From: a virus
Taxonomy: Duplodnaviria > Caudoviricetes
DNA length: 44,328 nt
Virus record (IMG/VR): IMGVR_UViG_3300017589_000277
Coordinates: 1 to 44,328 of that record
Strand: one strand, 5' to 3'
The notes under the pieces are model-generated. The model did no database searches and was not told where the DNA came from. It saw only the letters and a list, made by a program, of their open reading frames with translations. The position numbers and the translations under genes are program-made. Below are positions 1 through 22,361 of this stretch, piece after piece (position 1 is the stretch's first letter; every line of letters begins with the position of its first letter).

Positions 1-345
1 CTAGTCGATTTCAAATTTTGGTTTATCCCAATCGGATCCGCACCTAGAATGATAGCCTAATAGGGCTTGCAAGTTTATAGCATCTTTGCTAATGAGTAGC
101 GTAAAAAAGGTATATATTTTATCGTAGCAAAAAGCATTGAGCACTTTCATGTCTTCCTGCGAGAGTTTCCCATCGGCGTGCATATCCTCAACGGGACCGT
201 TGCGGAAACAGTAATGCGTCAGTCCGCGCGCAAGCTCTTCTATGGTATAATCCTTTTTGCCGAACATCAGCGCACCGTTAAGCCGATTAAAGCTGTTGGC
301 GTCCATCTCTTTTTCAAGTATCTTCAAAATATCTTTTGTATCCAT
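1..345 (-). CDS. Hypothetical protein (moron-like, own promoter)
   Basis: 114-aa ORF with HYCFRNGPVEDMH motif, directly preceded by a sigma-A-like promoter. Confidence 0.75.
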   Translation of the reverse strand: MDTKDILKILEKEMDANSFNRLNGALMFGKKDYTIEELARGLTHYCFRNGPVEDMHADGKLSQEDMKVLNAFCYDKIYTFFTLLISKDAINLQALLGYHSRCGSDWDKPKFEID

Positions 346-352
346 GAATGAT

Positions 353-381
353 ATATTAAGTCATCAGCCCGACATTGTCAA
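353..381 (-). promoter_or_regulatory. Sigma-70/A promoter for ORF 1..345, probably leaderless mRNA
   Basis: TTGACA (381-376), 17 nt, TAATAT (358-353); ATG at 345; no SD between them. Confidence 0.6.
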
Positions 382-394
382 CGCTAATTTTAAT

Positions 395-1237
395 TTAAGG
401 CTCCGTTTTTGCGTCCTCAAAGAAAGTGCCGAGCAGTTGGAGCCTTCGTTTGAAGATATCGTTCTTGCGTAATGAATACTGCTTCACGCCGCCGGAATAA
501 CCTCCCCAAGCGGAAGTGACCATAATAGAAAGGTTGACGGCAAAATCTATAAGCACATCACTTGTCAGACCGCCCGAAAGTTTATCATAGGATATATATC
601 CGAGTATAAGCGCGGTCACGAGTTTTTGCATAATCTTAATACTTATAGAAACGGCTTCTTCTGCGGGCTCGTTGTAGTCAACGCCGTAACTGTATTTTCT
701 TCGTACAACACTGTCGGTCATGATTGACAAAGGGTTGAGTTCACGCACTTTAATTTTGCCGCGATAAACTTTAGATATGACCCTTTTTTGTTTTTTTGTA
801 AACTCTGCATTTATATGTTCATTTGTGTAATTAAGATACTCTTCATATGTAACGCCCGCATCTTTCAGAGTATCTTCCTGCTTTTGTCTTAAAAATTCCG
901 CTGTCTTTTTGGCGCAGAATTCACGAAATCGCGCGTTCAATTTTTTATTGTTTATATCGCTGACAAGTTCTCCGTAACGCGCTGCATTTTTACTGTATGC
1001 AGATTCCGGGTTATTTCTTACGCTGTCTTTTCCTGCCGGACGCCATATAATATGCATTGTGACTAGTATTGCGCCGCTAAAAACAAACCCAAGCATGATG
1101 TCTTGTATCTGCGCGTCTTTTTTTGCATACAATTCGACAAAACGTTGTATGATTACGATTCCTATCAGCAGCGCGGTTATAAGAAAAGGAACTGCTGTTT
1201 TCATCTTTTGCGCCAAATCACCTTCAAATTTCTTCAT
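395..1237 (-). CDS. Multi-pass membrane protein (lysis/release cassette candidate)
   Basis: 280 aa, two N-terminal and two C-terminal hydrophobic segments around a basic soluble domain; overlaps upstream gene. Confidence 0.75.
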   Translation of the reverse strand: MKKFEGDLAQKMKTAVPFLITALLIGIVIIQRFVELYAKKDAQIQDIMLGFVFSGAILVTMHIIWRPAGKDSVRNNPESAYSKNAARYGELVSDINNKKLNARFREFCAKKTAEFLRQKQEDTLKDAGVTYEEYLNYTNEHINAEFTKKQKRVISKVYRGKIKVRELNPLSIMTDSVVRRKYSYGVDYNEPAEEAVSISIKIMQKLVTALILGYISYDKLSGGLTSDVLIDFAVNLSIMVTSAWGGYSGGVKQYSLRKNDIFKRRLQLLGTFFEDAKTEP

Positions 1238-1739
1238 CTTCTATTCTCCTATGCTTGCTCCGAATGCTTGCAATCTCGCATACGCTGAATACTTCTCCAA
1301 GTACATAGCTTATAGTTATGAACCCGAATACGCCGAACAGCTTGACGATCGCCTGCTCCAATGCCCAACATACGTACATTGACCCGGCAAGGATAGCAAA
1401 CGGCACAACAAACGCCATGAGGCTTTCAATGATTTTTGATTTGCGTATGGCACGCTCGATCAGCAGTGTTTTGTCCGGCGCGGTTTCTGTTTCAATCTGC
1501 GTTTCAAATACAGCAATCTTTGCGGAGAGCTTTTTTGCATACTTGTTGAGCAACAGTTTTTTTGCAAGGATAAGCACTAACACAATCATGACGATGCCGG
1601 TGATGCCTATTTTGAAAGACACATTTTCAGGCGTGTCTTTCAGCGTCGAGTATTGCATTACAATAAAAGTAACCGGCGCGGCGAACCAACATACCAGTTC
1701 CAGTATGAAAAATATCATACGTTTAGAAGTCCATTTCAT
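1224..1739 (-). CDS. Membrane protein with about 4 TM segments (holin-like candidate)
   Basis: 171 aa, four hydrophobic stretches, charged C-terminal tail. Confidence 0.7.
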   Translation of the reverse strand: MKWTSKRMIFFILELVCWFAAPVTFIVMQYSTLKDTPENVSFKIGITGIVMIVLVLILAKKLLLNKYAKKLSAKIAVFETQIETETAPDKTLLIERAIRKSKIIESLMAFVVPFAILAGSMYVCWALEQAIVKLFGVFGFITISYVLGEVFSVCEIASIRSKHRRIEDEEI

Positions 1740-1750
1740 ACGACACCGCC

Positions 1751-2314
1751 TTAACCGAATGAAATCGCGTTCTTCGGTTTGACCTCTACAACCGGCACGG
1801 GCTTGACGGCTTCCACAACAGGCGCGGTATCGTCTAACTCAATGACAATAGGCTCTTTAGGCTCTTCCGGCAGCGCACCGCGCGCAGAAACCACAGTAGC
1901 AAGCAATTCAGCCTTTTGCTTGTCGCTCATTTCCCTGCCGCGTACAAGAAGGTCAGCAACACCCACAGAAGCCGTCTTGACGTCTTTCATATCGGAAGAT
2001 AGCGACAGCATCATGTCTTTGAACTCTGAACGCATTTCTGTCGCTACCTCGGAAGCTATTTTTCTTGCCTCTGATTCAAGCAAGGTTTTAATGTCGATGT
2101 TGATTGATTTTTTCCCGATACCTTTAACCACTTTATCAGATATTGCGGAAACGAGATCGTAATTTGTTAGTTCGTTGCTTCGCTTCGAGAGAAGCGTTAA
2201 GACGGCTTTTTTGACTAAAGCAACAGTAACCGTACCGCCGCTAAGAAGAGCGACGATTTGCACAGCCAAGGCGACCCAAGGCTGAATTTGTTCCCATAAA
2301 ACGTTAAAATCCAT
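1751..2314 (-). CDS. N-terminally anchored coiled-coil membrane protein
   Basis: 187 aa, N-terminal hydrophobic helix, helical middle, Pro/Val-rich tail; AAGGAG RBS. Confidence 0.75.
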   Translation of the reverse strand: MDFNVLWEQIQPWVALAVQIVALLSGGTVTVALVKKAVLTLLSKRSNELTNYDLVSAISDKVVKGIGKKSINIDIKTLLESEARKIASEVATEMRSEFKDMMLSLSSDMKDVKTASVGVADLLVRGREMSDKQKAELLATVVSARGALPEEPKEPIVIELDDTAPVVEAVKPVPVVEVKPKNAISFG

Positions 2315-2323
2315 ATGTACTCC

Positions 2324-2602
2324 TTATACCCTTAAAGGGTCAGTTTCGAGTTTTCTCAAGCGGCTCATAATGTCCGTGTTCTCGTTGAACATCTTGCTGA
2401 ACTCTTTTTCGCAAGAACTTTTTAATGCCGAAACGCGCGAGTCTACCGCGGTGGCATTTGAAGCGTCTTTCATGCTTGCTTCTAGTGCTTTTATGCGCCC
2501 ATCAAAGCCCATAACGATACTTTTCAGATCGTTAGTTTCTTGTGAAAGAAGTTTGACACGCGCTATTAGGGTTTTTACGTTGCTTTCGTCGACTGTGTTC
2601 AT
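2324..2602 (-). CDS. Small coiled-coil protein
   Basis: 92 aa with heptad pattern; ATGA overlap with upstream gene; GGAG RBS. Confidence 0.75.
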   Translation of the reverse strand: MNTVDESNVKTLIARVKLLSQETNDLKSIVMGFDGRIKALEASMKDASNATAVDSRVSALKSSCEKEFSKMFNENTDIMSRLRKLETDPLRV

Positions 2603-2856
2603 GGTTGTTCTCCTTGTTCAATAAATTCTTCCGTTTCCTGCGCCATTTGTGCTCTTAATGCTTCTTGTTCTGCCTCATAAGCAATTCGCTCTGCCTCTGC
2701 TTCCTCTATCGTTGTTGCGGTAGAGGAAGGTATGAGGATTTTGTGATTAATCAGGTCTGAAATTTCGTGTTCTTTGACAAGATACACATCGCCTATAAGC
2801 CCAAGTTTTTTCTTAAAGTTCTCAATTTGTACGTTAATTCCATCTCTGTAAATCAT
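2599..2856 (-). CDS. Small protein downstream of fibre gene (possible fibre chaperone)
   Basis: Start revised to ATG at 2856 (GGAGGtataacaacATG), 85 aa. Confidence 0.65.
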   Translation of the reverse strand: MIYRDGINVQIENFKKKLGLIGDVYLVKEHEISDLINHKILIPSSTATTIEEAEAERIAYEAEQEALRAQMAQETEEFIEQGEQP

Positions 2857-2860
2857 GTTG

Positions 2861-4894
2861 TTATACCTCCACGTATAGCAGTCTGCCTGCAACATAGACA
2901 CCACCGGAGTTATTTGTATTAGCGTAAAGTCCTTCCTGGTTGCCTTGGTAATATGACCCTGTATTGTAAGCACTGGCACCAGAATAATAGGCTAAGTCGC
3001 AAAAATAGGTATTATAACTAGCATTATTTACACTCTCGCAAGGCATACATTCAAACGGATTATCAGCGTCCCATCCAATAGCCGCAACACAACCTGGAGA
3101 AAGGTTTACACCAGTATAGCAAAGTAATGATTTTCCACTAGTAGTGTCAGAAAAGTAAACTGGATTATTTGTTGCATATAAACTTGAATTCAAAGAAGAT
3201 TGACCAACAATACCATCAATAAACTCAAAGCAGTTTCCCACAAAATCTTCAATATAGTGATACCTCATTGGATAATAAGACGGACCAAGTTTCCACCCAG
3301 TTGGAGTAGTTAGTGTATCTGTAGTACCACATGGCGATAAAGCACTAGAAGCTGCTTGACCTGCAATAATAGAATTTGAATTTTTTGTAGCAAATTCTAT
3401 CATCCATAAAAATTTCATAGCCGTGGAATGATACAAATCTAATGGTCTATAATTACTTCCCGTATTAGCCGCGTAAGTCCTTAAATTCGCTCTTGATGTA
3501 CTTCTAAGCCGCGATACACCTGATATAGACAGTAATTTATTATTTGCATCTTTATATGCACCATAGCACCCATACCAAAACTCATCTACTTTATACCAAG
3601 ACCCTTCTCCACTCGGCTTTTGAGATACGGCTATATCAGTTATTCGATAACTAGCGTCACACCCAACTCTGAAATACATTTCAGGCAGGTGCAAAAAACT
3701 ATTCCCTAATGCATCTGTTTCTTTTACGGCAATATTCCACGGGAATAGGTCATCAAAATCGGAAGCTATCGTACCTGCCGATGCGTTCCTAACATAGGTT
3801 TTTCCAATAGCTTGGTCTGTACGTGTTAGGGTAGGACTGCTATCATACATACCAGCTACGCCATAAATAGGAGCAACTCCTACAAGATAAATGTAAGCAT
3901 TATTGTATCTGGAAGATTGGTAAGTTCCCTCACTTTGTGCAATTAGGGTAATGTGATATATACCATCGGCTTGACCATTAAAGAGGTTAGATAGATTTAT
4001 TGGTGAAGTAGTTGAATAAGGCAAAAAACCGCCTAATTCCCAAACAAAAATGGAGTAACGAGTAGCATTATCAACGAGGTTAAAGTTAAAAGAATCACCA
4101 TTCATGGCTATGGATGTAGGGGTGTCAAGTACGGGGTAATCCATAGCAATAGCAGTAACAATCAAATCACCTACGTCATTAAGCAGAACAAAGTCCAGGG
4201 TAAGCACCCCTGTAGAGTCCACATATCTATAATCAAATAGTGCGCCTAATTCTGTGAGTTCATAAGTAAAATAAGGAATCCCGTTTCCTCCAAGGCTAAT
4301 AACGATATCTCGGGGTCTGTACTTTCCTGCGGCGGGGGTAAATGTGGTTTCAAACAAGCCATCTTCTATAATAGCCTGTTTCGTATAAGTAGAGCCCAAA
4401 TCTGTCAACGTCTGTGTTACGGAATAAACAGAGAAGGACAGTGAATTGCTTGAATCGCTATCAGTAAAATTAATTCCTGAAGCTTTAACAGTTATTACAA
4501 AATCTCCAACACCCAAAGTTTCTAAATCAAAATCGGTATCGTCAATTAAATCTAGTAAGGTTCCGTTGTTGTACAGTTTATAACCAACAACATATGTTCC
4601 ATTAGAGCTAGGATTCATGATGGTCATAATGTTTCTAGCTCTTGTGATTGTAACTGCGTTTAGCTGAGGTTGAGTACCTCCACCTCCTTGATAAGTTCCT
4701 ACTACCCCACCTATATTTACACCATCAAGCATGTTTTCCGGAAGCATGGTGTCAGGCTTTTGAACAGTAACCTTAGCCATTGTTTTTCCTTCAGAAGGAT
4801 ACACAATTTGATCCCCACTTGCCATGTTTAGGGCAACGGTTTTTTCTTCAGTAGGTAGTCCACTTCCTTTCTGTGTTAAATTAGACTTATACAT
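2861..4894 (-). CDS. Receptor-binding/tail fibre protein with FN3-like modules and C-terminal C-type-lectin (Mtd/FGE-like) domain
   Basis: 677 aa; two FN3-like beta segments; C-terminal IEFATKNS...IEDFVGNCFEFIDG...YFCD...GRLLY pattern. Confidence 0.7.
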   Translation of the reverse strand: MYKSNLTQKGSGLPTEEKTVALNMASGDQIVYPSEGKTMAKVTVQKPDTMLPENMLDGVNIGGVVGTYQGGGGTQPQLNAVTITRARNIMTIMNPSSNGTYVVGYKLYNNGTLLDLIDDTDFDLETLGVGDFVITVKASGINFTDSDSSNSLSFSVYSVTQTLTDLGSTYTKQAIIEDGLFETTFTPAAGKYRPRDIVISLGGNGIPYFTYELTELGALFDYRYVDSTGVLTLDFVLLNDVGDLIVTAIAMDYPVLDTPTSIAMNGDSFNFNLVDNATRYSIFVWELGGFLPYSTTSPINLSNLFNGQADGIYHITLIAQSEGTYQSSRYNNAYIYLVGVAPIYGVAGMYDSSPTLTRTDQAIGKTYVRNASAGTIASDFDDLFPWNIAVKETDALGNSFLHLPEMYFRVGCDASYRITDIAVSQKPSGEGSWYKVDEFWYGCYGAYKDANNKLLSISGVSRLRSTSRANLRTYAANTGSNYRPLDLYHSTAMKFLWMIEFATKNSNSIIAGQAASSALSPCGTTDTLTTPTGWKLGPSYYPMRYHYIEDFVGNCFEFIDGIVGQSSLNSSLYATNNPVYFSDTTSGKSLLCYTGVNLSPGCVAAIGWDADNPFECMPCESVNNASYNTYFCDLAYYSGASAYNTGSYYQGNQEGLYANTNNSGGVYVAGRLLYVEV

Positions 4895-6609
4895 TAGACT
4901 ACCTCCGTAAACTTATAACCTACAATTACAATAGTGATATCTGGTATTGCAGATGCATACACATAAAAACCACCATTATACTGGTCTCCTGAAGCCTTTA
5001 GAATACCCAGAGCATCTGCCGCATCGTCAAAATAGACATCGCCAACATGTGATGCGGTAAGCCCTGTAACAGGTACAGCCGCCCTATATCCGTAATCTTC
5101 ATAGGTGGTATCTGCTGCCCAGTCGGTTGTAAGCACGGTCGCGGAGCCTTTAAGCGTACCCCCTGGCATAAGGCGGTAACCGTCTAAAAGCGTGGCGCCT
5201 GCGGTTACAAGAGCAGATTTTGCAGTTTGTGCTAATGAGGCGGTTGCGCATATAATGTCTGTTAATGAGCATTGAAATGCGGTTCCTGACATTGCAGGAA
5301 GTGCCGCGGTATGCTTGAATTCAATTTCACGTAACGAATTGCAAAAAAGCGCACCGCTTTCAATAGTTTCTATAGTTGACGGAAGTATTATTTTTTTAAG
5401 TTTATTTTGAGCATAAAATGCATTGTAACCGAGCGTTTGAAGAAGAATACACGGAGATAAATCTACATATGTAAACGCGCATAAAGCAAAAGCGTTTAAC
5501 CCTACAGATACTAAAGATGGAGACCATAAAACGGTTTCTAATTTCGAGCAGCCACTACACACATAATTCCCAAGCGATTGTGTATATTGCGATAAATATA
5601 GTGCTACAAGGCTTGAGCACCCGCGAAGTGCGCTATTACCAATGGCTCCAGTCCAATTTAACGAGAATTCCAATTTGAAAAGATTATAACAACCGTAAAA
5701 ACTATTATCTGCCATCGGGCAATTTGTACCAATGTATACTTCTATGTATTTTTCACCTCCTGATGATGCGCTATTTACGTTAAAGCCATTAAATGTACCG
5801 GAAATCAATATGTAATAATAACCCGCATAGGCGTAATTTAGCGTTTTGTTACCTCCCGATGTGTATGCCGCAGGGATTGTACCATCACCTTTTGAAACAA
5901 TATAATTTAAGTCAGAACCCGCGGCAAGGTGCAGCGTGTTATTACCGGCACTAGCCGAGAAACCAATAACTGTTATGCTCGGCTGTCTAGCAAGTACAGC
6001 CATTTGAGCTGCGGCTACGGACTGATCTACATATTGCGTAGTGGAAGCAATAGCCAATTTTTCTTTGTCTTCCGCAGTAAATGCAGCGGTCATATTGTCT
6101 AGTATAGCTTTGTTTGTGTGACTATGAGACGCGGTAACAGCCGCATCGTAAGCGGCTTTAAGAATATCAGTAAAGTCATTTGTTGATAAACTTTTGCCTT
6201 CGACTTTGTCAACCTTATTACTTAGTGCCGTTTCGATAGCGTCAACAGCCTCCGAAAGCGCGGTTATCAGTTCGCTGATATTCGTATCTTCGTCGTATCC
6301 GATTGCGGTCTTAATATGATTAATTTCAGCCTTACAATAGTCAAGATACGCCTGTATGGTGGTTATCGTTTCGCCGTCTACCGCGCCGATATTTGCAGCA
6401 GATGTAGACCCTTTCATGAGGTCAATAAGACCGTTAAAAAGGGTAATAAGATACTCGACCGCAGCGTCAAATTGAGCCTTTAGCCCTGCAGCTGTAAGCC
6501 CGTTTCCGCCTAGTTCCGCAGATCTGTTTGGTCTGTCGGCAAGTTTTTTGATGCTTTTATTATATAGGATTACTGGATTCGGTTTTTGCCCGTCAAATAT
6601 ATTACTCAT
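4894..6609 (-). CDS. Tail fibre-like protein with BspA-type leucine-rich repeats
   Basis: 571 aa; coiled N-terminus, KVDKVEGKSLSTNDFT fibre motif, repeats such as IGNSALRGCSSL, LGNYVCSGCSKL, LPSTIETIESGALF. Confidence 0.75.
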   Translation of the reverse strand: MSNIFDGQKPNPVILYNKSIKKLADRPNRSAELGGNGLTAAGLKAQFDAAVEYLITLFNGLIDLMKGSTSAANIGAVDGETITTIQAYLDYCKAEINHIKTAIGYDEDTNISELITALSEAVDAIETALSNKVDKVEGKSLSTNDFTDILKAAYDAAVTASHSHTNKAILDNMTAAFTAEDKEKLAIASTTQYVDQSVAAAQMAVLARQPSITVIGFSASAGNNTLHLAAGSDLNYIVSKGDGTIPAAYTSGGNKTLNYAYAGYYYILISGTFNGFNVNSASSGGEKYIEVYIGTNCPMADNSFYGCYNLFKLEFSLNWTGAIGNSALRGCSSLVALYLSQYTQSLGNYVCSGCSKLETVLWSPSLVSVGLNAFALCAFTYVDLSPCILLQTLGYNAFYAQNKLKKIILPSTIETIESGALFCNSLREIEFKHTAALPAMSGTAFQCSLTDIICATASLAQTAKSALVTAGATLLDGYRLMPGGTLKGSATVLTTDWAADTTYEDYGYRAAVPVTGLTASHVGDVYFDDAADALGILKASGDQYNGGFYVYASAIPDITIVIVGYKFTEVV

Positions 6610-6620
6610 GCGTGATTCTC

Positions 6621-9251
6621 CTATTTAATCCGTCCGACAAGGCTGTATTGATACATAATGTGATAGAGCGCGAAAGGCTTCAAAATCACATCACTCATGA
6701 CGTATAGCTGCTTTTCTACCCATTTCTTTTCCTTTTCATTGACTACAAATGTCTGTTGATCGTCCATGTTGAAAGTAAGATCCGCAAAGTCGACATCGCC
6801 GAAGTCAAAGAAACTGCTGTTAATTTCTCCCACCGTCAAAAACGCGCTTTTGTTTGTTCTTACGCGTATTTTTAAGTTACTTTGGGAAAGCGTTTTACAC
6901 TTGACAACCATTGATTTCTTCAGCGTGGTTTTGTATAAATTCGGATATCCACAGTTGTCGAACACGGTCGCAACGCCGCAAACGATCGCTCGGTTGTCAA
7001 ACGAGTACGCCGCAGAAGGAATCATCCCGTCTTCTCTTTTGTCAAACGCAAACTTACATATATAACCGTTTTCAGTACCGAAAATGATGTTTTCTTGATA
7101 TGAATTGATACACGACGCAGCACCAAAAACACCGCCGATATAGTCTGATTGCCGTTCTACAAGGTAATACTTTGTGTATGTAACTTCGCTGATTGTCACC
7201 TCGTATTCAACATAATTGAAAGTGTGCGTAACTTCACCGATCAGGACGGTTCCGCTTAATATTTCGCGCTCTCCCGTGCCGTCTGATAACGGATCATTTG
7301 CATTGGTTCCGATAATATCATCCGGCGCAAGCTCAAGCGGCGCTCCGTCAATAGTAACGTCGTCAAATTCTTCCGGCATCTCGCTTGAAAACGTATAACG
7401 CGGATACTGTGCTTCGTAGACGCCTATACCTTGCAGATAGTACCACTCATACTCTTTTGTGTTAAGTTTGGATAAATACACCTGACGGCTGTCTGCAAGG
7501 TAGATATGACCGTTTACAAGGCATATAAGATATCCGCTCCATTCTTCTAGCAGACATTTTGCTAAGTCTTCATTGACAAATCTCCCGTCTACAAGTGACG
7601 AGCGATGCTCAATAGAACGTTCAGAGCTTACAAGAAGCTGCCCTATACCTTTAAGCCCAAGGCGGGATACAAATACCGGATCATCGAGAAAGCTCGTACA
7701 ATCTCCAATGCAGCCAATGCCGGGAACGCCGGGCTTTGACGGATAAATGCGCGGGTTTAAGTCGCTTTCAATATCTTGCGCGTAATGGTAATATTGTGAT
7801 GCGTCCTGCAGCGTGTCGCTTTTCAGCACCAGTAACGTATCTGTCAATGTAGTGAGCGCGGTAATTGGCGACGGTCCTTTACCATCCACAAAAAAGCATA
7901 ACGCGCCGATGTACGACGGATCGTCCACCATGCAGTGATACACTTCGTTGTGATGCGTAGGGTTTCCAGAAAAGAAAGCGCGGTTATCAAATACGGCAGA
8001 CAGCGTGCATTTATTTATGATGTCCGCATCGCTTGTGATCGCTTTTGCAGCTTTGATAGAAATTCCCGCATAATCAATCGCGTAACCGTTATCCTGAGGA
8101 CGCGTGGGCGCGGTTACAAATGTTACAATACCTTTTGTAATATCAACCGTGTAATTCGTTGTAACTTCTTTTTCTACACCGTACACAGTCACTTCTTCGA
8201 TGCTGTCAATATCGTTTTCACTAAGCGTATAAGTTGTGACAATCTTTGCAAGTTTTTTCGCCGTAAGGGTGACTTCTTCGTCGACGCCGCCCACGGTATA
8301 ATGTTCCGTGACAAGTCCGCTGAGTTTCAACGCTTCGCGCACTTTATCTCCAAGTGTTGCGGCGGTGTCGGAAAGTTCAACGGTTATGTAGCCTTCATAT
8401 TCTTGACTATCAAATAAATAGGAAGACAATATTAGTTTTGCGTATCCTGCAGCCGATATTGTGCTGATCGCAACATCAAGCTGCGCGACTTGCTTATTTG
8501 TCAACGTGGGAGCCTGTGTAATGACGCTTTCTTCCGATGTTACGCCTACAGATGTCCAGTCTTCAATACTTAGTTCAAGAGGGAACGTCGCCGGTGTAGG
8601 CGCGATAAAAGTGTTTATAAAATAATTACTAATGCGGTTTCTTTGCGCAACCTCAGCCCCAGTGCTTTCAAGTTCTCCGGCGGCGCTTTGCGCGGGTATT
8701 CTGTTAACAAATGTAATAGGCACATACCCTACAACAGCTTCACAAACAAGCGCTGATCCGCTATAATACGCTTTTCTGTATGTTGTTCCGTCAAGAATAT
8801 AACAAGCATTGTTAAAAATAAAAGACGATGATTTTGCGTTCGCAAGCCCGGAGAAAATGAGGTCAGCGGAAGTTAACAACATTTTATTTTCAAGAACAGT
8901 TTCACTAGAATGAGGGTAATTTGGGTATGACGCCCAAACATAAAGTTTTGTTCCGGCGTGAATCAATATGACTTCTACAGTCGCGCTTCCGCTATTATAT
9001 TTGAACGGAATCAGCTTGTGTACTTTTGGGACAACGGTACCTTCAAGCGGGATTTTTATCATGCGTTCAAAACCGGGAAAGGTTTCAATGGCTTGTCCCT
9101 GACTGCTCTTGTAGTCCTTGTACATGTTCACAATGTACGGAAAACGATTTTTAGCAACAAGAACCGGGTCGGATGAAAAATCCGCACCCGCAAAGTCGTT
9201 ATAAATGCGATTATACGCTGTAGGCGGTATTATGTTTTGCATTACGCCCAT
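6621..9251 (-). CDS. Tail nozzle / tubular protein B (P22 gp10, T7 gp12-like)
   Basis: 876-aa beta-rich protein after the adaptor; N-terminal FAGADFS, DNRAFFSG, GIGCIG, PVFVSRLG motifs. Confidence 0.7.
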   Translation of the reverse strand: MGVMQNIIPPTAYNRIYNDFAGADFSSDPVLVAKNRFPYIVNMYKDYKSSQGQAIETFPGFERMIKIPLEGTVVPKVHKLIPFKYNSGSATVEVILIHAGTKLYVWASYPNYPHSSETVLENKMLLTSADLIFSGLANAKSSSFIFNNACYILDGTTYRKAYYSGSALVCEAVVGYVPITFVNRIPAQSAAGELESTGAEVAQRNRISNYFINTFIAPTPATFPLELSIEDWTSVGVTSEESVITQAPTLTNKQVAQLDVAISTISAAGYAKLILSSYLFDSQEYEGYITVELSDTAATLGDKVREALKLSGLVTEHYTVGGVDEEVTLTAKKLAKIVTTYTLSENDIDSIEEVTVYGVEKEVTTNYTVDITKGIVTFVTAPTRPQDNGYAIDYAGISIKAAKAITSDADIINKCTLSAVFDNRAFFSGNPTHHNEVYHCMVDDPSYIGALCFFVDGKGPSPITALTTLTDTLLVLKSDTLQDASQYYHYAQDIESDLNPRIYPSKPGVPGIGCIGDCTSFLDDPVFVSRLGLKGIGQLLVSSERSIEHRSSLVDGRFVNEDLAKCLLEEWSGYLICLVNGHIYLADSRQVYLSKLNTKEYEWYYLQGIGVYEAQYPRYTFSSEMPEEFDDVTIDGAPLELAPDDIIGTNANDPLSDGTGEREILSGTVLIGEVTHTFNYVEYEVTISEVTYTKYYLVERQSDYIGGVFGAASCINSYQENIIFGTENGYICKFAFDKREDGMIPSAAYSFDNRAIVCGVATVFDNCGYPNLYKTTLKKSMVVKCKTLSQSNLKIRVRTNKSAFLTVGEINSSFFDFGDVDFADLTFNMDDQQTFVVNEKEKKWVEKQLYVMSDVILKPFALYHIMYQYSLVGRIK

Positions 9252-11309: not shown

Positions 11310-11717
11310 TTAAATAAATCTGACTGTGACGCCGTCGCCGGTATCGTTTCCGCCGTCGAGTTTTGCATCGACAGTTGCAACGCCGCTTGACGTGGTTGCG
11401 GTTACGCGGAGCCCGTCGCTTGCAATGGTGACTTTGTCACCGATATTGATAGAGTCCGGGTCTGCCGAGAATGTGGATTGATAAATGTATTCGGGTAGAA
11501 TCGGATTGACTTCCAAATCTTCGTTTCCCGATGCGGGCGCAACATAGCTTCGCGCGGCGATATACGTCGGCTTAGTCGTTGCTCCGCATTTTGTAAGTGC
11601 TCCGCTCGACAATACAAGTGCTTCACCTGTGGTGTAGGTTTCTGACGCGGTTGTCGGCTTTTTCTCTACGATCGGATACATTTCACCGCCGAGAGATTTT
11701 GCAAAAATGAATCCCAT
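11310..11717 (-). CDS. Capsid decoration/cement protein (short paralogue)
   Basis: 135 aa between scaffold and capsid; GEALVLSSGALTKCG. Confidence 0.7.
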   Translation of the reverse strand: MGFIFAKSLGGEMYPIVEKKPTTASETYTTGEALVLSSGALTKCGATTKPTYIAARSYVAPASGNEDLEVNPILPEYIYQSTFSADPDSINIGDKVTIASDGLRVTATTSSGVATVDAKLDGGNDTGDGVTVRFI

Positions 11718-11731
11718 TTACATGCCTCCTG

Positions 11732-12493
11732 TTAAATGAATCGAACTTCGACTTCCGTGCCTTCCGCACCGGTGCCGAGTTTCTTGTGGATTGTTGCAAC
11801 GCCTGTAGACGCAACGCCTGCGGTTGTAACACTTGTTCCTGCGGTAGTTACGCCTGCGCTTGCACCTTCGCCATCGCCGTCGTCAATAGCAATATTGAGC
11901 GTAGCATCGTCTGCGTCGTAAATAAGCGGGGTAAGGACGATCGTAGCGGCTGAACCGCTTACTGCAAAATTAGCCGTAATGTCTTCGTCTGCGGCAAGAG
12001 CGGTGCGAATTGCCAATGCAATTGCGGCGGCATCGTCTTCAAGCACCACCGGGACATCAATTGCTTTTGACCCATCGTCTAAAAGCGCAGATGTGACCGT
12101 GACAAGAGCGTTTCCTGCGGTTGATACAGTTCCTGCGGCGGTCGCCGTAGTGTACTGGTGCGTTCCTGTGGAGCCTGTAACATACATGCCGGTTGTGTCA
12201 AGCGTGACAACAGCGCCTTCGGGCGTTGCAGTAGCGTTTGCGGCAAATTTGGTACGGTACACAAATTCAGAAAGCACGGGGTGAGAGGGAATGTCTAAAT
12301 TCCCCGAAGAAGGCGCCGTATAGTCGATAGCCGAGATTTCGACAGGCTTAACCGTTTGACCGCATTTTGTAAGTTTGCCGGAAGAAAAAACAAGCGCTTC
12401 TCCTTTGGCATACACTTCTGAAGCAGTCGTAGGTCGCATCTGTAGAATCGGATATTTGTCGTCGCCTAAAGATAGTGCGAATTCAAAAGCCAT
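11732..12493 (-). CDS. Capsid decoration protein (long paralogue with inserted domain)
   Basis: 253 aa; aligns with 11310..11717 at both termini (GEALVFSSGKLTKCG; VRFI*) with a ~115-aa insertion. Confidence 0.7.
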   Translation of the reverse strand: MAFEFALSLGDDKYPILQMRPTTASEVYAKGEALVFSSGKLTKCGQTVKPVEISAIDYTAPSSGNLDIPSHPVLSEFVYRTKFAANATATPEGAVVTLDTTGMYVTGSTGTHQYTTATAAGTVSTAGNALVTVTSALLDDGSKAIDVPVVLEDDAAAIALAIRTALAADEDITANFAVSGSAATIVLTPLIYDADDATLNIAIDDGDGEGASAGVTTAGTSVTTAGVASTGVATIHKKLGTGAEGTEVEVRFI

Positions 12494-19903: not shown

Positions 19904-20227
19904 ATGAAAGCAAAGATTATACTCGTTTCTTCTTTTTTAGTAATCGCAGTAATACTTGCAGTAACGCTTGGATGCGTTTATGGTATTAAGTTAACCGTTA
20001 CGATTGATTACGGTTATTCGGAAGGTTCTCGCATACTTGGGTTTGAGCCAAAAATAGAAGAATTTAAGGTCACACGTGGCTCTACTTTTTCGCCGGAACG
20101 TCCCACGCGTAGCGGGTACACATTCAAGGGTTGGTATAAAGATTCCGCTTTAACGATACCGTGGTCAAGTACAGACAAGGTAAGGTCTGATATGACGCTG
20201 TACGCGAAGTGGGAAGCGATTGATTAA
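19904..20227 (+). CDS. Membrane-anchored InlB B-repeat (Flg_new) protein; moron, superinfection-exclusion candidate
   Basis: N-terminal hydrophobic helix with Cys; PTRSGYTFKGWYKD...W...DMTLYAKW. Confidence 0.85.
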   Translation: MKAKIILVSSFLVIAVILAVTLGCVYGIKLTVTIDYGYSEGSRILGFEPKIEEFKVTRGSTFSPERPTRSGYTFKGWYKDSALTIPWSSTDKVRSDMTLYAKWEAID

Positions 20228-21567: not shown

Positions 21568-22140
21568 CTATGCCCTCATCCAGTTGTGCGGCAAATTGTA
21601 CTTTGCTAGAAATAACGCCATTGCTATTTCGTCGCAGTTCTGGTGTTGTGCATCTTCCCATGCGTGACCTTGCAACGTGTCCCACGGTTCGCGCTCGGTA
21701 AAGTGCCGAAGGTGCAAAAGTTCATGAATAAGCGTGTATTCCTGCGGCTGTTTTTTGATAAGCACTTCGGGAATTTCTTCTGACAATCTTAGCATTATCC
21801 ACGCACTTTTTAGCTGACCATTAATTGACGCTTCTGCTGCAAGTTGCTCTTTGTCGTCTCGCAAGAAATTATGCCAACTCGTTGTCTCAGCTTTAATCAT
21901 CCAGTCCATCAGCCCTAATCTGTCCTGCCACTCATCGAGACACGCGTCAAGCTGTTCTTGTGATTCAAATTGCATGATGGGACTAGGCGTATTATCGGTC
22001 TTACGCAATTCTTCTGTGCCTACGCCGATAAACACGCCGGAAGTAACATTTTTGTAGTCTTCCGGCTTAGATTGCGCGGTGTCAGCGGCGTTTTTGGGAT
22101 CTAAACCATACCCATACCTTAGTGCTTCGTCCGTTCCCAT
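21568..22140 (-). CDS. Zincin-like metallopeptidase
   Basis: EYTLIHELLHLRH (HExxH); WQDRLGLMDW. Confidence 0.7.
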   Translation of the reverse strand: MGTDEALRYGYGLDPKNAADTAQSKPEDYKNVTSGVFIGVGTEELRKTDNTPSPIMQFESQEQLDACLDEWQDRLGLMDWMIKAETTSWHNFLRDDKEQLAAEASINGQLKSAWIMLRLSEEIPEVLIKKQPQEYTLIHELLHLRHFTEREPWDTLQGHAWEDAQHQNCDEIAMALFLAKYNLPHNWMRA

Positions 22141-22361
22141 CAGTCAATGACCTCCCAATTTTCAGCAAAGAGCTCAATCATCGTCTCTTTCCACGGTACC
22201 TTGCCAAATTTGCTCTCAACGTACAGATACGGTGCGGTCATTTTGCTGTGCTCGTCGGGGCGTTGACAGCGGATTACGACGTCGGGCGACCACTTCGGCA
22301 ACCTCATTCCTTTGCCTTGCTTGACTTGCTCAAAAGCAGCTCCAAAACTTAATCCATTCAT
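22140..22361 (-). CDS. tad2: DUF2829 / Tad2-family anti-defence sponge protein
   Basis: SFGAAFEQVKQG...R..W...PYLY...VPW......LFAENWEV matches the DUF2829 pattern. Confidence 0.75.
   Translation of the reverse strand: MNGLSFGAAFEQVKQGKGMRLPKWSPDVVIRCQRPDEHSKMTAPYLYVESKFGKVPWKETMIELFAENWEVID

Follow-up and report, generated by a model that had tools for sequence, protein, structure and literature searches.

To our knowledge, an endolysin is held to be required by tailed phages of walled bacteria. The three-gene unit described here, termed B-C-D, occupies the same slot after the fibre genes as the holin-endolysin cassettes of Bacillota tailed phages (Phage_holin_4_1 with GH25, GH73, amidase, CHAP or NlpC), in phages that share capsid and tail proteins with its carriers, and likewise consists of small membrane proteins closing the late operon; it differs from these cassettes in having neither a hydrolase nor a match to a holin family, in comprising three membrane proteins in a fixed order, and in never occurring together with a lysin in the examined loci. 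Single-gene lysis (phiX174 E, Lys-M, MS2 L) is carried out by single small proteins of small ssDNA or ssRNA phages, membrane proteins that lyse the cell without a muralytic enzyme, as B-C-D may do; however, B-C-D belongs to tailed phages, comprises three coupled proteins, each 170-280 aa long, has no sequence match to the single-gene proteins and, rather than one small protein, was a three-gene unit in 34/38 loci.

Virus release from cells that have no peptidoglycan barrier is known from archaeal virus-associated pyramids, for which one N-terminally anchored helical protein suffices, and from tailed phages of Mollicutes. The anchored helical pyramid protein resembles B in outline, whereas the hosts considered here are spore-forming Clostridia with mur genes, and no sequence or fold match to either system was found. 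Spanins (Rz/Rz1, u-spanin) act after the endolysin, and in the two-component form an inner-membrane coiled coil and an outer-membrane lipoprotein serve a diderm host; B shares the membrane-anchored coiled coil, but no lipoprotein partner was seen for it and the hosts are Clostridia. No ORF of the window matched a spanin family in Pfam or PHROGs, and no lipobox was found by eye in the four proteins of the cassette. By its predicted function, B-C-D would thus resemble a lysis cassette while lying outside the definitions of both holin-endolysin and single-gene lysis.

The late-operon end of the window

The window, i.e., the whole stretch of DNA analysed, is a virus record of 44,328 bases with both ends at gene ends. 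Since it was cut from a contig of 52,181 bases, for which the D protein is on record and of which ~7.8 kb lie beyond the record, the window represents a trimmed prophage. Genes encoding an integrase, a repressor, RecT/YqaJ, terminase, a P22-like portal, capsid, an SU10-like adaptor and fibres were detected with Pfam and PHROGs, as was a gene encoding a 2052-aa LPD38/MuF-C protein, and on this gene content the window is classified as a temperate podovirus-type phage with integrase. A Tad2-like (Thoeris anti-defence) gene lies directly after the portal gene (22140-22361), and Tad2-like domains are also found in the lysis region of three other loci (L013, L015, L073). A lone plus-strand gene within the virion operon (19904-20227) encodes a 107-aa membrane-anchored Listeria-Bacteroides repeat protein, and two tandem phrog_24113 paralogues (11310-12493), the first with an insertion, precede the capsid gene and are likely head decoration proteins.

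The four tightly packed late ORFs of the preliminary description were all recovered (Table 1), with gaps of 9 bp and 11 bp and a 14-bp overlap between C and D. Its four-gene cassette holds as regards the packing, while the conserved unit is B-C-D, given that 34/38 full-length D loci in related genomes have this order and that the 92-aa ORF is without a match. The latter occupies the slot (A position) of a variable 130-155-aa gene in relatives, but did not significantly match the A-position profile at any stage and had only sub-threshold coiled-coil-type matches in Pfam.

Table 1. Features at the end of the late operon of the window.
Feature	Position	Strand	Basis or remark
114-aa soluble ORF at the record edge	1..345	-	No family
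Sigma-70-like promoter match TTGACA-17-TAATAT, between D and the 114-aa ORF	353..381	-	10/12 consensus matches
D, 2+2-TM protein, 280 aa, last late-operon gene	395..1237	-	Hydropathy and profile
C, four-TM protein, 171 aa	1224..1739	-	Hydropathy and profile
B, single-pass membrane-anchored coiled coil, 187 aa	1751..2314	-	Hydropathy: TM 16-34, then heptad region
92-aa ORF, soluble coiled coil	2324..2602	-	Hydropathy: no TM; strong heptad window at residue 23
Upstream tail module: 876-aa tail protein, 571-aa BspA-LRR fibre, 677-aa tail protein, small ORF	2599..9251	-	Pfam, PHROGs

The 187-aa protein is assigned to B by its gene position and by its closest homologues, the B proteins of L214 (E 2.7e-5) and L196 (E 0.005), each encoded directly upstream of C and D; the broad B profile matches it weakly (E 0.01-0.017), and most B homologues have an additional N-terminal signal-peptide-like segment in the alignment. 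A C profile built from 34 homologues matches the 171-aa protein at E 1.7e-10 among the window ORFs, and the C protein of L214 does so at E 3.9e-15; L214 and L196 share with it a helical insertion of ~35 aa between TM2 and TM3. The corresponding D profile, also from 34 homologues, matches the 280-aa protein at E 8e-38. In D the N-terminal TM pair is strong, the C-terminal pair (195-213, 228-246) is weaker and was seen at a lower threshold only, and a helical domain of ~120 aa separates the two.

The AF2 model of D is all helical (pLDDT 78, pTM 0.71) and that of C has four long helices (pLDDT 74, pTM 0.49). Neither model matched a PDB structure in Foldseek at E<=0.001. Matches of D in BFVD are uncharacterised or unnamed proteins only, including some of Sipho- and Podoviridae, and in the ESM Atlas D matched unnamed viral clusters only (0.91), C had no named cluster above 0.8, and structure rows from Phage_holin_3_6 clusters fell below the bar (TM 0.31-0.38). 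B, C, D and their homologues matched no Pfam, PHROG or NCBIfam family, holin families included.

Regarding the operon end, the promoter-like site between D and the next ORF weakly suggests that D is the final late gene; this site is the sole one of its kind in positions 1-2900, where shuffled sequences average 5.7, and hence a positional hint only. The 114-aa ORF beyond it had no Pfam, PHROG or NCBIfam match and no homologue among the fetched loci, and is likely a separately expressed moron or host gene.

Spread of B-C-D and its exclusion of endolysins

As single queries, D and the capsid protein found no relatives, D retrieving itself alone, and a pattern search of viral contigs with the D alignment returned nothing. 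Relatives were reached through a capsid alignment (143 loci); in six of these, genes for an anchored coiled coil and a four-TM protein come before a D homologue. The 876-aa tail protein served as anchor for gathering related phages. Early profiles from these six homologues gave non-significant comparisons for B, C and A; with closer homologues added C became significant, B was still weak and A remained without a match. Among 38 full-length D loci, B- and C-type genes lie directly upstream of D in 34, the remaining 4 being affected by an N-run, a contig edge or overlap. The preliminary description had proposed examining whether the cassette is conserved in endolysin-less phages, and the B-C-D order does recur in lysin-free relatives.

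When 1.84 billion representatives were searched by profile, the D family comprised 1,125 clusters at 50% identity (E<=0.001). Credible D matches were found by profile search in 10/151 genomes of the family of genome G004, in 2/81 of the family of G156 and in 23/401 of the order of G156, but in 0/151 of the family of G618 (a host of Lachnospiraceae type). These counts leave out nine weak N-terminal D matches among the 401 genomes of the order (E 3e-5 to 4e-4, all without MreC), three holin matches below the cut-off, one genome (G141) with an ABC-transporter neighbour (E 9e-5) and five weak partial matches in the family of G618. A literature search returned no account of the cassette or of wall reduction in these host lineages, subscription papers and supplements lying outside its scope, and the accessible part of 10.64898/2026.07.08.737213 does not describe the cassette.

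The unit is found in podo-type loci (L167, L170), in a podo type with a different capsid (L172), and in prophages with an SPP1-type portal or minor capsid 2 (L173/L181, L224/L225, L227). Judged from these gene contents, which include podo- and sipho-type prophages as well as the islands described below, B-C-D is a module independent of virion type. In many relatives, genes encoding a reverse transcriptase and DUF6273 lie between the fibre genes and the cassette in an arrangement like a diversity-generating retroelement (L437:17049-19863, L354:15458-18246, L469:12794-14616 and L372:15509-18508, the last with two reverse transcriptases). An IS-type integrase-core transposase gene directly follows D in L425, L354, L432, L369, L365, L453 and L345, and possibly acts as the integrase of that phage group. 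Chromosomal orphan D genes or B-C-D remnants left after prophage decay were also seen (L171:9890-10885, L165:10080-10943, L006:2533-2760, L222:18345 to L223:1137).

The absence of a recognisable endolysin, as first noted by reading the sequence, was confirmed by Pfam and PHROGs for the window, its ~7.8 kb flank lying outside the scan: at E<=0.01, none of the 61 main-frame ORFs, selected from 221 listed, matched a peptidoglycan hydrolase or peptidoglycan-binding family (amidase, GH, CHAP, M15/M23, NlpC, SLT and PG-binding families were looked for). As a positive control, the identical Pfam scan detected a lysin or PG-binding domain in 32/35 related phage loci, and in most of the 35 the lysin sits after the fibre genes. 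Among 127 loci that have the common tail gene and at least 6 kb of downstream sequence, 52 had D only, 32 a lysin only, 43 neither and 0 both, the 32 lysin-positive loci being partly positive by construction since the lysin profiles were built from proteins of the 35-locus scan. Cassettes lying routinely beside endolysins had been named in the preliminary description as one observation that would count against its reading; such a pairing was seen in 0/127 tail-gene loci.

Similarly, no lysin match was obtained in any of 57 D loci, 43 of which extend at least 1.5 kb beyond D; these loci are redundant, 56 full-length D proteins forming 27 clusters at 70%. One relative with the same tail gene as the window is a circular 43.9-kb phage with a 141-bp terminal repeat (G053:C87), in which the integrase gene comes after D and 0/61 scanned ORFs have a hydrolase domain. 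Another 87 and 139 ORFs from cassette phages contained no lysin, the set of 139 covering ORFs after D, ORFs between the tail gene and B, and prophages with SPP1-type heads. A transglutaminase-like ORF and a papain-fold ORF in one sipho-type relative are possible cryptic hydrolases. The sequence after D in relatives consists of integrase, transposase, early or host genes, and in genome G011 the late operon terminates at D, facing early genes.

Two types of islands retain the unit. Type-1 islands of 11-12 kb (L029, L033, L035, L037, L039 and L066, e.g., L037:6029-16455; L163 and L169 are probably further examples) lie between host genes and contain terminase, portal, scaffold, capsid, adaptor, tail and A-B-C-D genes, with no large ejection protein between the portal and capsid genes; in most, one flank is the nucleoside-salvage operon (uridine kinase), and in 5/6 a DinG-like helicase gene follows directly. 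The type-2 island of ~16 kb was found in two genomes (L236:8673 to L237:4972 in G323, L232/L233 in G445), which are syntenic and share their flanks, three upstream genes and RecO; B-C-D is located in the middle of the operon, ahead of the genes for a 360-aa protein and the portal, and similar gene neighbours occur in L198, L207, L208 and L209. Neither island type had a match to the integrase, RecT or YqaJ of the window, and B, C and D of the islands are under purifying selection, with pN well below pS (for D, pN 0.06-0.27 and pS 0.67-0.80).

With head-tail genes but no integrase or replication genes, a conserved site and purifying selection, both island types are candidate gene transfer agents. 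As the islands keep the trio under purifying selection and without an integrase, B-C-D is among the few genes retained when such phages become domesticated. The accessible text on the Faecalibacterium FpGTA describes integrase-free podovirus-like operons with holin and endolysin in a second operon, and reports GTA-like packaging in Christensenellaceae (PMC12946183). The islands are likewise integrase-free podovirus-like structural operons of gut Clostridia, but carry B-C-D where FpGTA, according to that text, has a holin and an endolysin, and the window itself differs in being a temperate phage with integrase. Since the lysis genes of FpGTA are in a second operon, the islands alone are no proof of lysin-free release.

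Wall genes of the hosts

The closest genomic match to the capsid protein of the window (51%) lies in a decayed prophage of G156 that retains a D fragment, and the B and C proteins closest to those of the window are in G290 and G482. These three genomes cluster with G547 in a quick EF-G tree, and close relatives of one G547 protein are labelled Christensenella or Christensenellaceae; the order of G156 is therefore likely Christensenellales.

The preliminary description had suggested a host with reduced or no peptidoglycan. The second option was not borne out: a host free of wall genes was rejected because mraY, Mur ligases and PBPs are present in D-carrying genomes, with mraY in 37/39 D carriers, Mur ligases in 10/10 tested and SpoIVA in 5/5. 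Reduction, on the other hand, is supported by the gene content of the hosts of relatives, few having MreC or LCP and most about two PBPs. MreC was detected in 4/39 D carriers versus 9/10 hosts of lysin phages, and NlpC/P60 in 11/39 versus 27/30 controls. LCP was found in 6/39 D carriers, including 0/25 in the order of G156, versus 28/30 controls (18/20 hand-picked, size-matched, MreC-positive genomes of that order and 10/10 others). Genes encoding SEDS, mostly in single copy, were present in 5/5 D-carrying genomes tested; PBP domains mostly number two, one of them adjoining murE/mraY, whereas five lysin-phage hosts have 5-9; the D hosts retain a PBP of class A size.

Across a single sample of 401 genomes from the order of G156, MreC was detected in 185, among them 0/23 D carriers versus 38/44 holin_4_1 carriers (Fisher p 6e-7 for D/MreC and 9e-9 for holin/MreC, not corrected for kinship, the genomes being incomplete MAGs), an association that may reflect few lineages. 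Four genomes depart from it (G053, G062, G011 and G080; family of G004), being MreC-positive yet having phages with B-C-D and without a lysin, and G053, the host of the circular phage, has LCP besides MreC; in addition, the genome G393 holds both D and a holin. The 216/401 genomes without an MreC match are possible wall-reduced spore-forming lineages; the D carriers tested among them are also without LCP and keep SpoIVA and mraY. In G156 an MreB-like gene, labelled by reading its sequence, follows maf with no mreC, mreD or pbp2 behind it (L006:10837-11739), and appears to be a remnant of the elongation operon.

In Clostridioides difficile, according to the accessible text of Shrestha et al. 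(PMC10693644), the PBP/SEDS pair encoded in the dcw cluster is sporulation-specific, RodA-PBP2 serves elongation, and a class A PBP alone builds the division septum. Taking this division of labour as the yardstick, D hosts would keep the spore kit and one class A-sized enzyme, which would fit either thin-walled cocci or wall-deficient growing cells. Because a class A PBP alone makes the septum in C. difficile, walled cocci are a possible form of these hosts. For Pumilibacteraceae, small cocci and thin rods are described in the accessible part of 10.1101/2022.03.07.483007, which gives no data on the wall.

A putative membrane-rupture exit and its alternatives

The reading favoured here, with a probability of roughly 55%, is that B-C-D is an endolysin-free membrane-rupture exit device for spore-formers with a reduced vegetative wall. 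It is suggested because the trio replaces the holin-endolysin cassette, moves between virion types, is predicted to insert in the membrane of the producer and tracks the envelope type of the host. An undescribed membrane exit system in place of holin and endolysin had already been proposed from the four ORFs, and gene order, lysin exclusion and the lysin-free circular relative now back that proposal. The growing host cell would likely have a thin, patchy or absent wall, the remaining dcw PBP/SEDS pair being used mainly for spores. B-C-D would be expressed late in infection, and B, C and D would insert into the cytoplasmic membrane of the producing cell, as the signal-peptide-like start of most B proteins suggests, and form a joint complex there. 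In this complex D may oligomerise through its helical domain to open a membrane lesion, while C may serve as its partner or as a timer and B may be an anchored scaffold or a brake; the weak-walled cell would then burst and free the particles without a wall-cutting enzyme.

In a further explanation, considered unlikely, the trio would lyse a host that has a wall, either by a block of its residual wall synthesis (lipid II cycle, class A PBP) or through activation of a host hydrolase, in the manner of the single-gene lysis proteins, which act as one small protein. The hosts do retain a single SEDS and two PBPs besides mraY and Mur ligases, lysin-free cassette phages occur in the four MreC-positive hosts, and with one vegetative synthase a single block might be enough; such a block would, however, have no need of three coupled membrane proteins, and 28/39 hosts are without NlpC/P60 hydrolases.

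A role of the trio in DNA entry, superinfection exclusion or membrane-linked virion assembly, with release proceeding without a phage gene or by other means, is improbable. Although type-1 islands have B-C-D and no large ejection protein, and B-C-D in type-2 islands and L172 is surrounded by structural genes in the middle of an operon, the trio takes the place of holin and endolysin in otherwise similar phages and is common to different virion types. Moreover, signal-peptide-like, multi-TM proteins would make poor capsid cargo, and the window phage already has its 2052-aa LPD38/MuF-C protein. Non-lytic exit from a wall-deficient cell by budding or vesicle release is judged less probable still: an anchored coiled coil with multi-TM partners would suit membrane bending, and sparing the producer would benefit domesticated islands, but the module has no ATPase, secretin or known budding fold, nor any fold match. 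Least probable of all is an ordinary endolysin beyond the trimmed end, in the ~7.8 kb of source contig outside the window, or cryptic in another ORF, as the transglutaminase-like and papain-fold ORFs of one sipho-type relative might be, with the trio as an unusual holin/antiholin set, given the genes that follow D in relatives (integrase, transposase, early or host genes), the promoter-like site between D and the following ORF, the lack of a lysin match in all 57 D loci, 43 with at least 1.5 kb after D, and the circular relative without a lysin.

If membrane rupture by B-C-D is correct, a widespread lysin-free module that tracks the loss of elongation and wall-anchoring genes would represent a new exit route for tailed phages, and B-C-D a new set of membrane-active folds; as B, C and D are short genes, they would be testable in laboratory L-forms or protoplasts. 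A broader reading is put forward tentatively, as one that may well prove wrong: sizeable lineages of uncultured gut Clostridia would grow wall-less or nearly so, making peptidoglycan mainly for spores, their tailed phages and domesticated islands would have exchanged holin and endolysin for a dedicated membrane-rupture trio of new folds, and the trio would be a marker of wall-deficient spore-formers. If true, this would be an indirect sign that growing cells of the abundant, uncultured gut Clostridia resemble those of Mollicutes although these bacteria still sporulate, and would bear on the difficulty of culturing them and on the origin of wall-less lineages.
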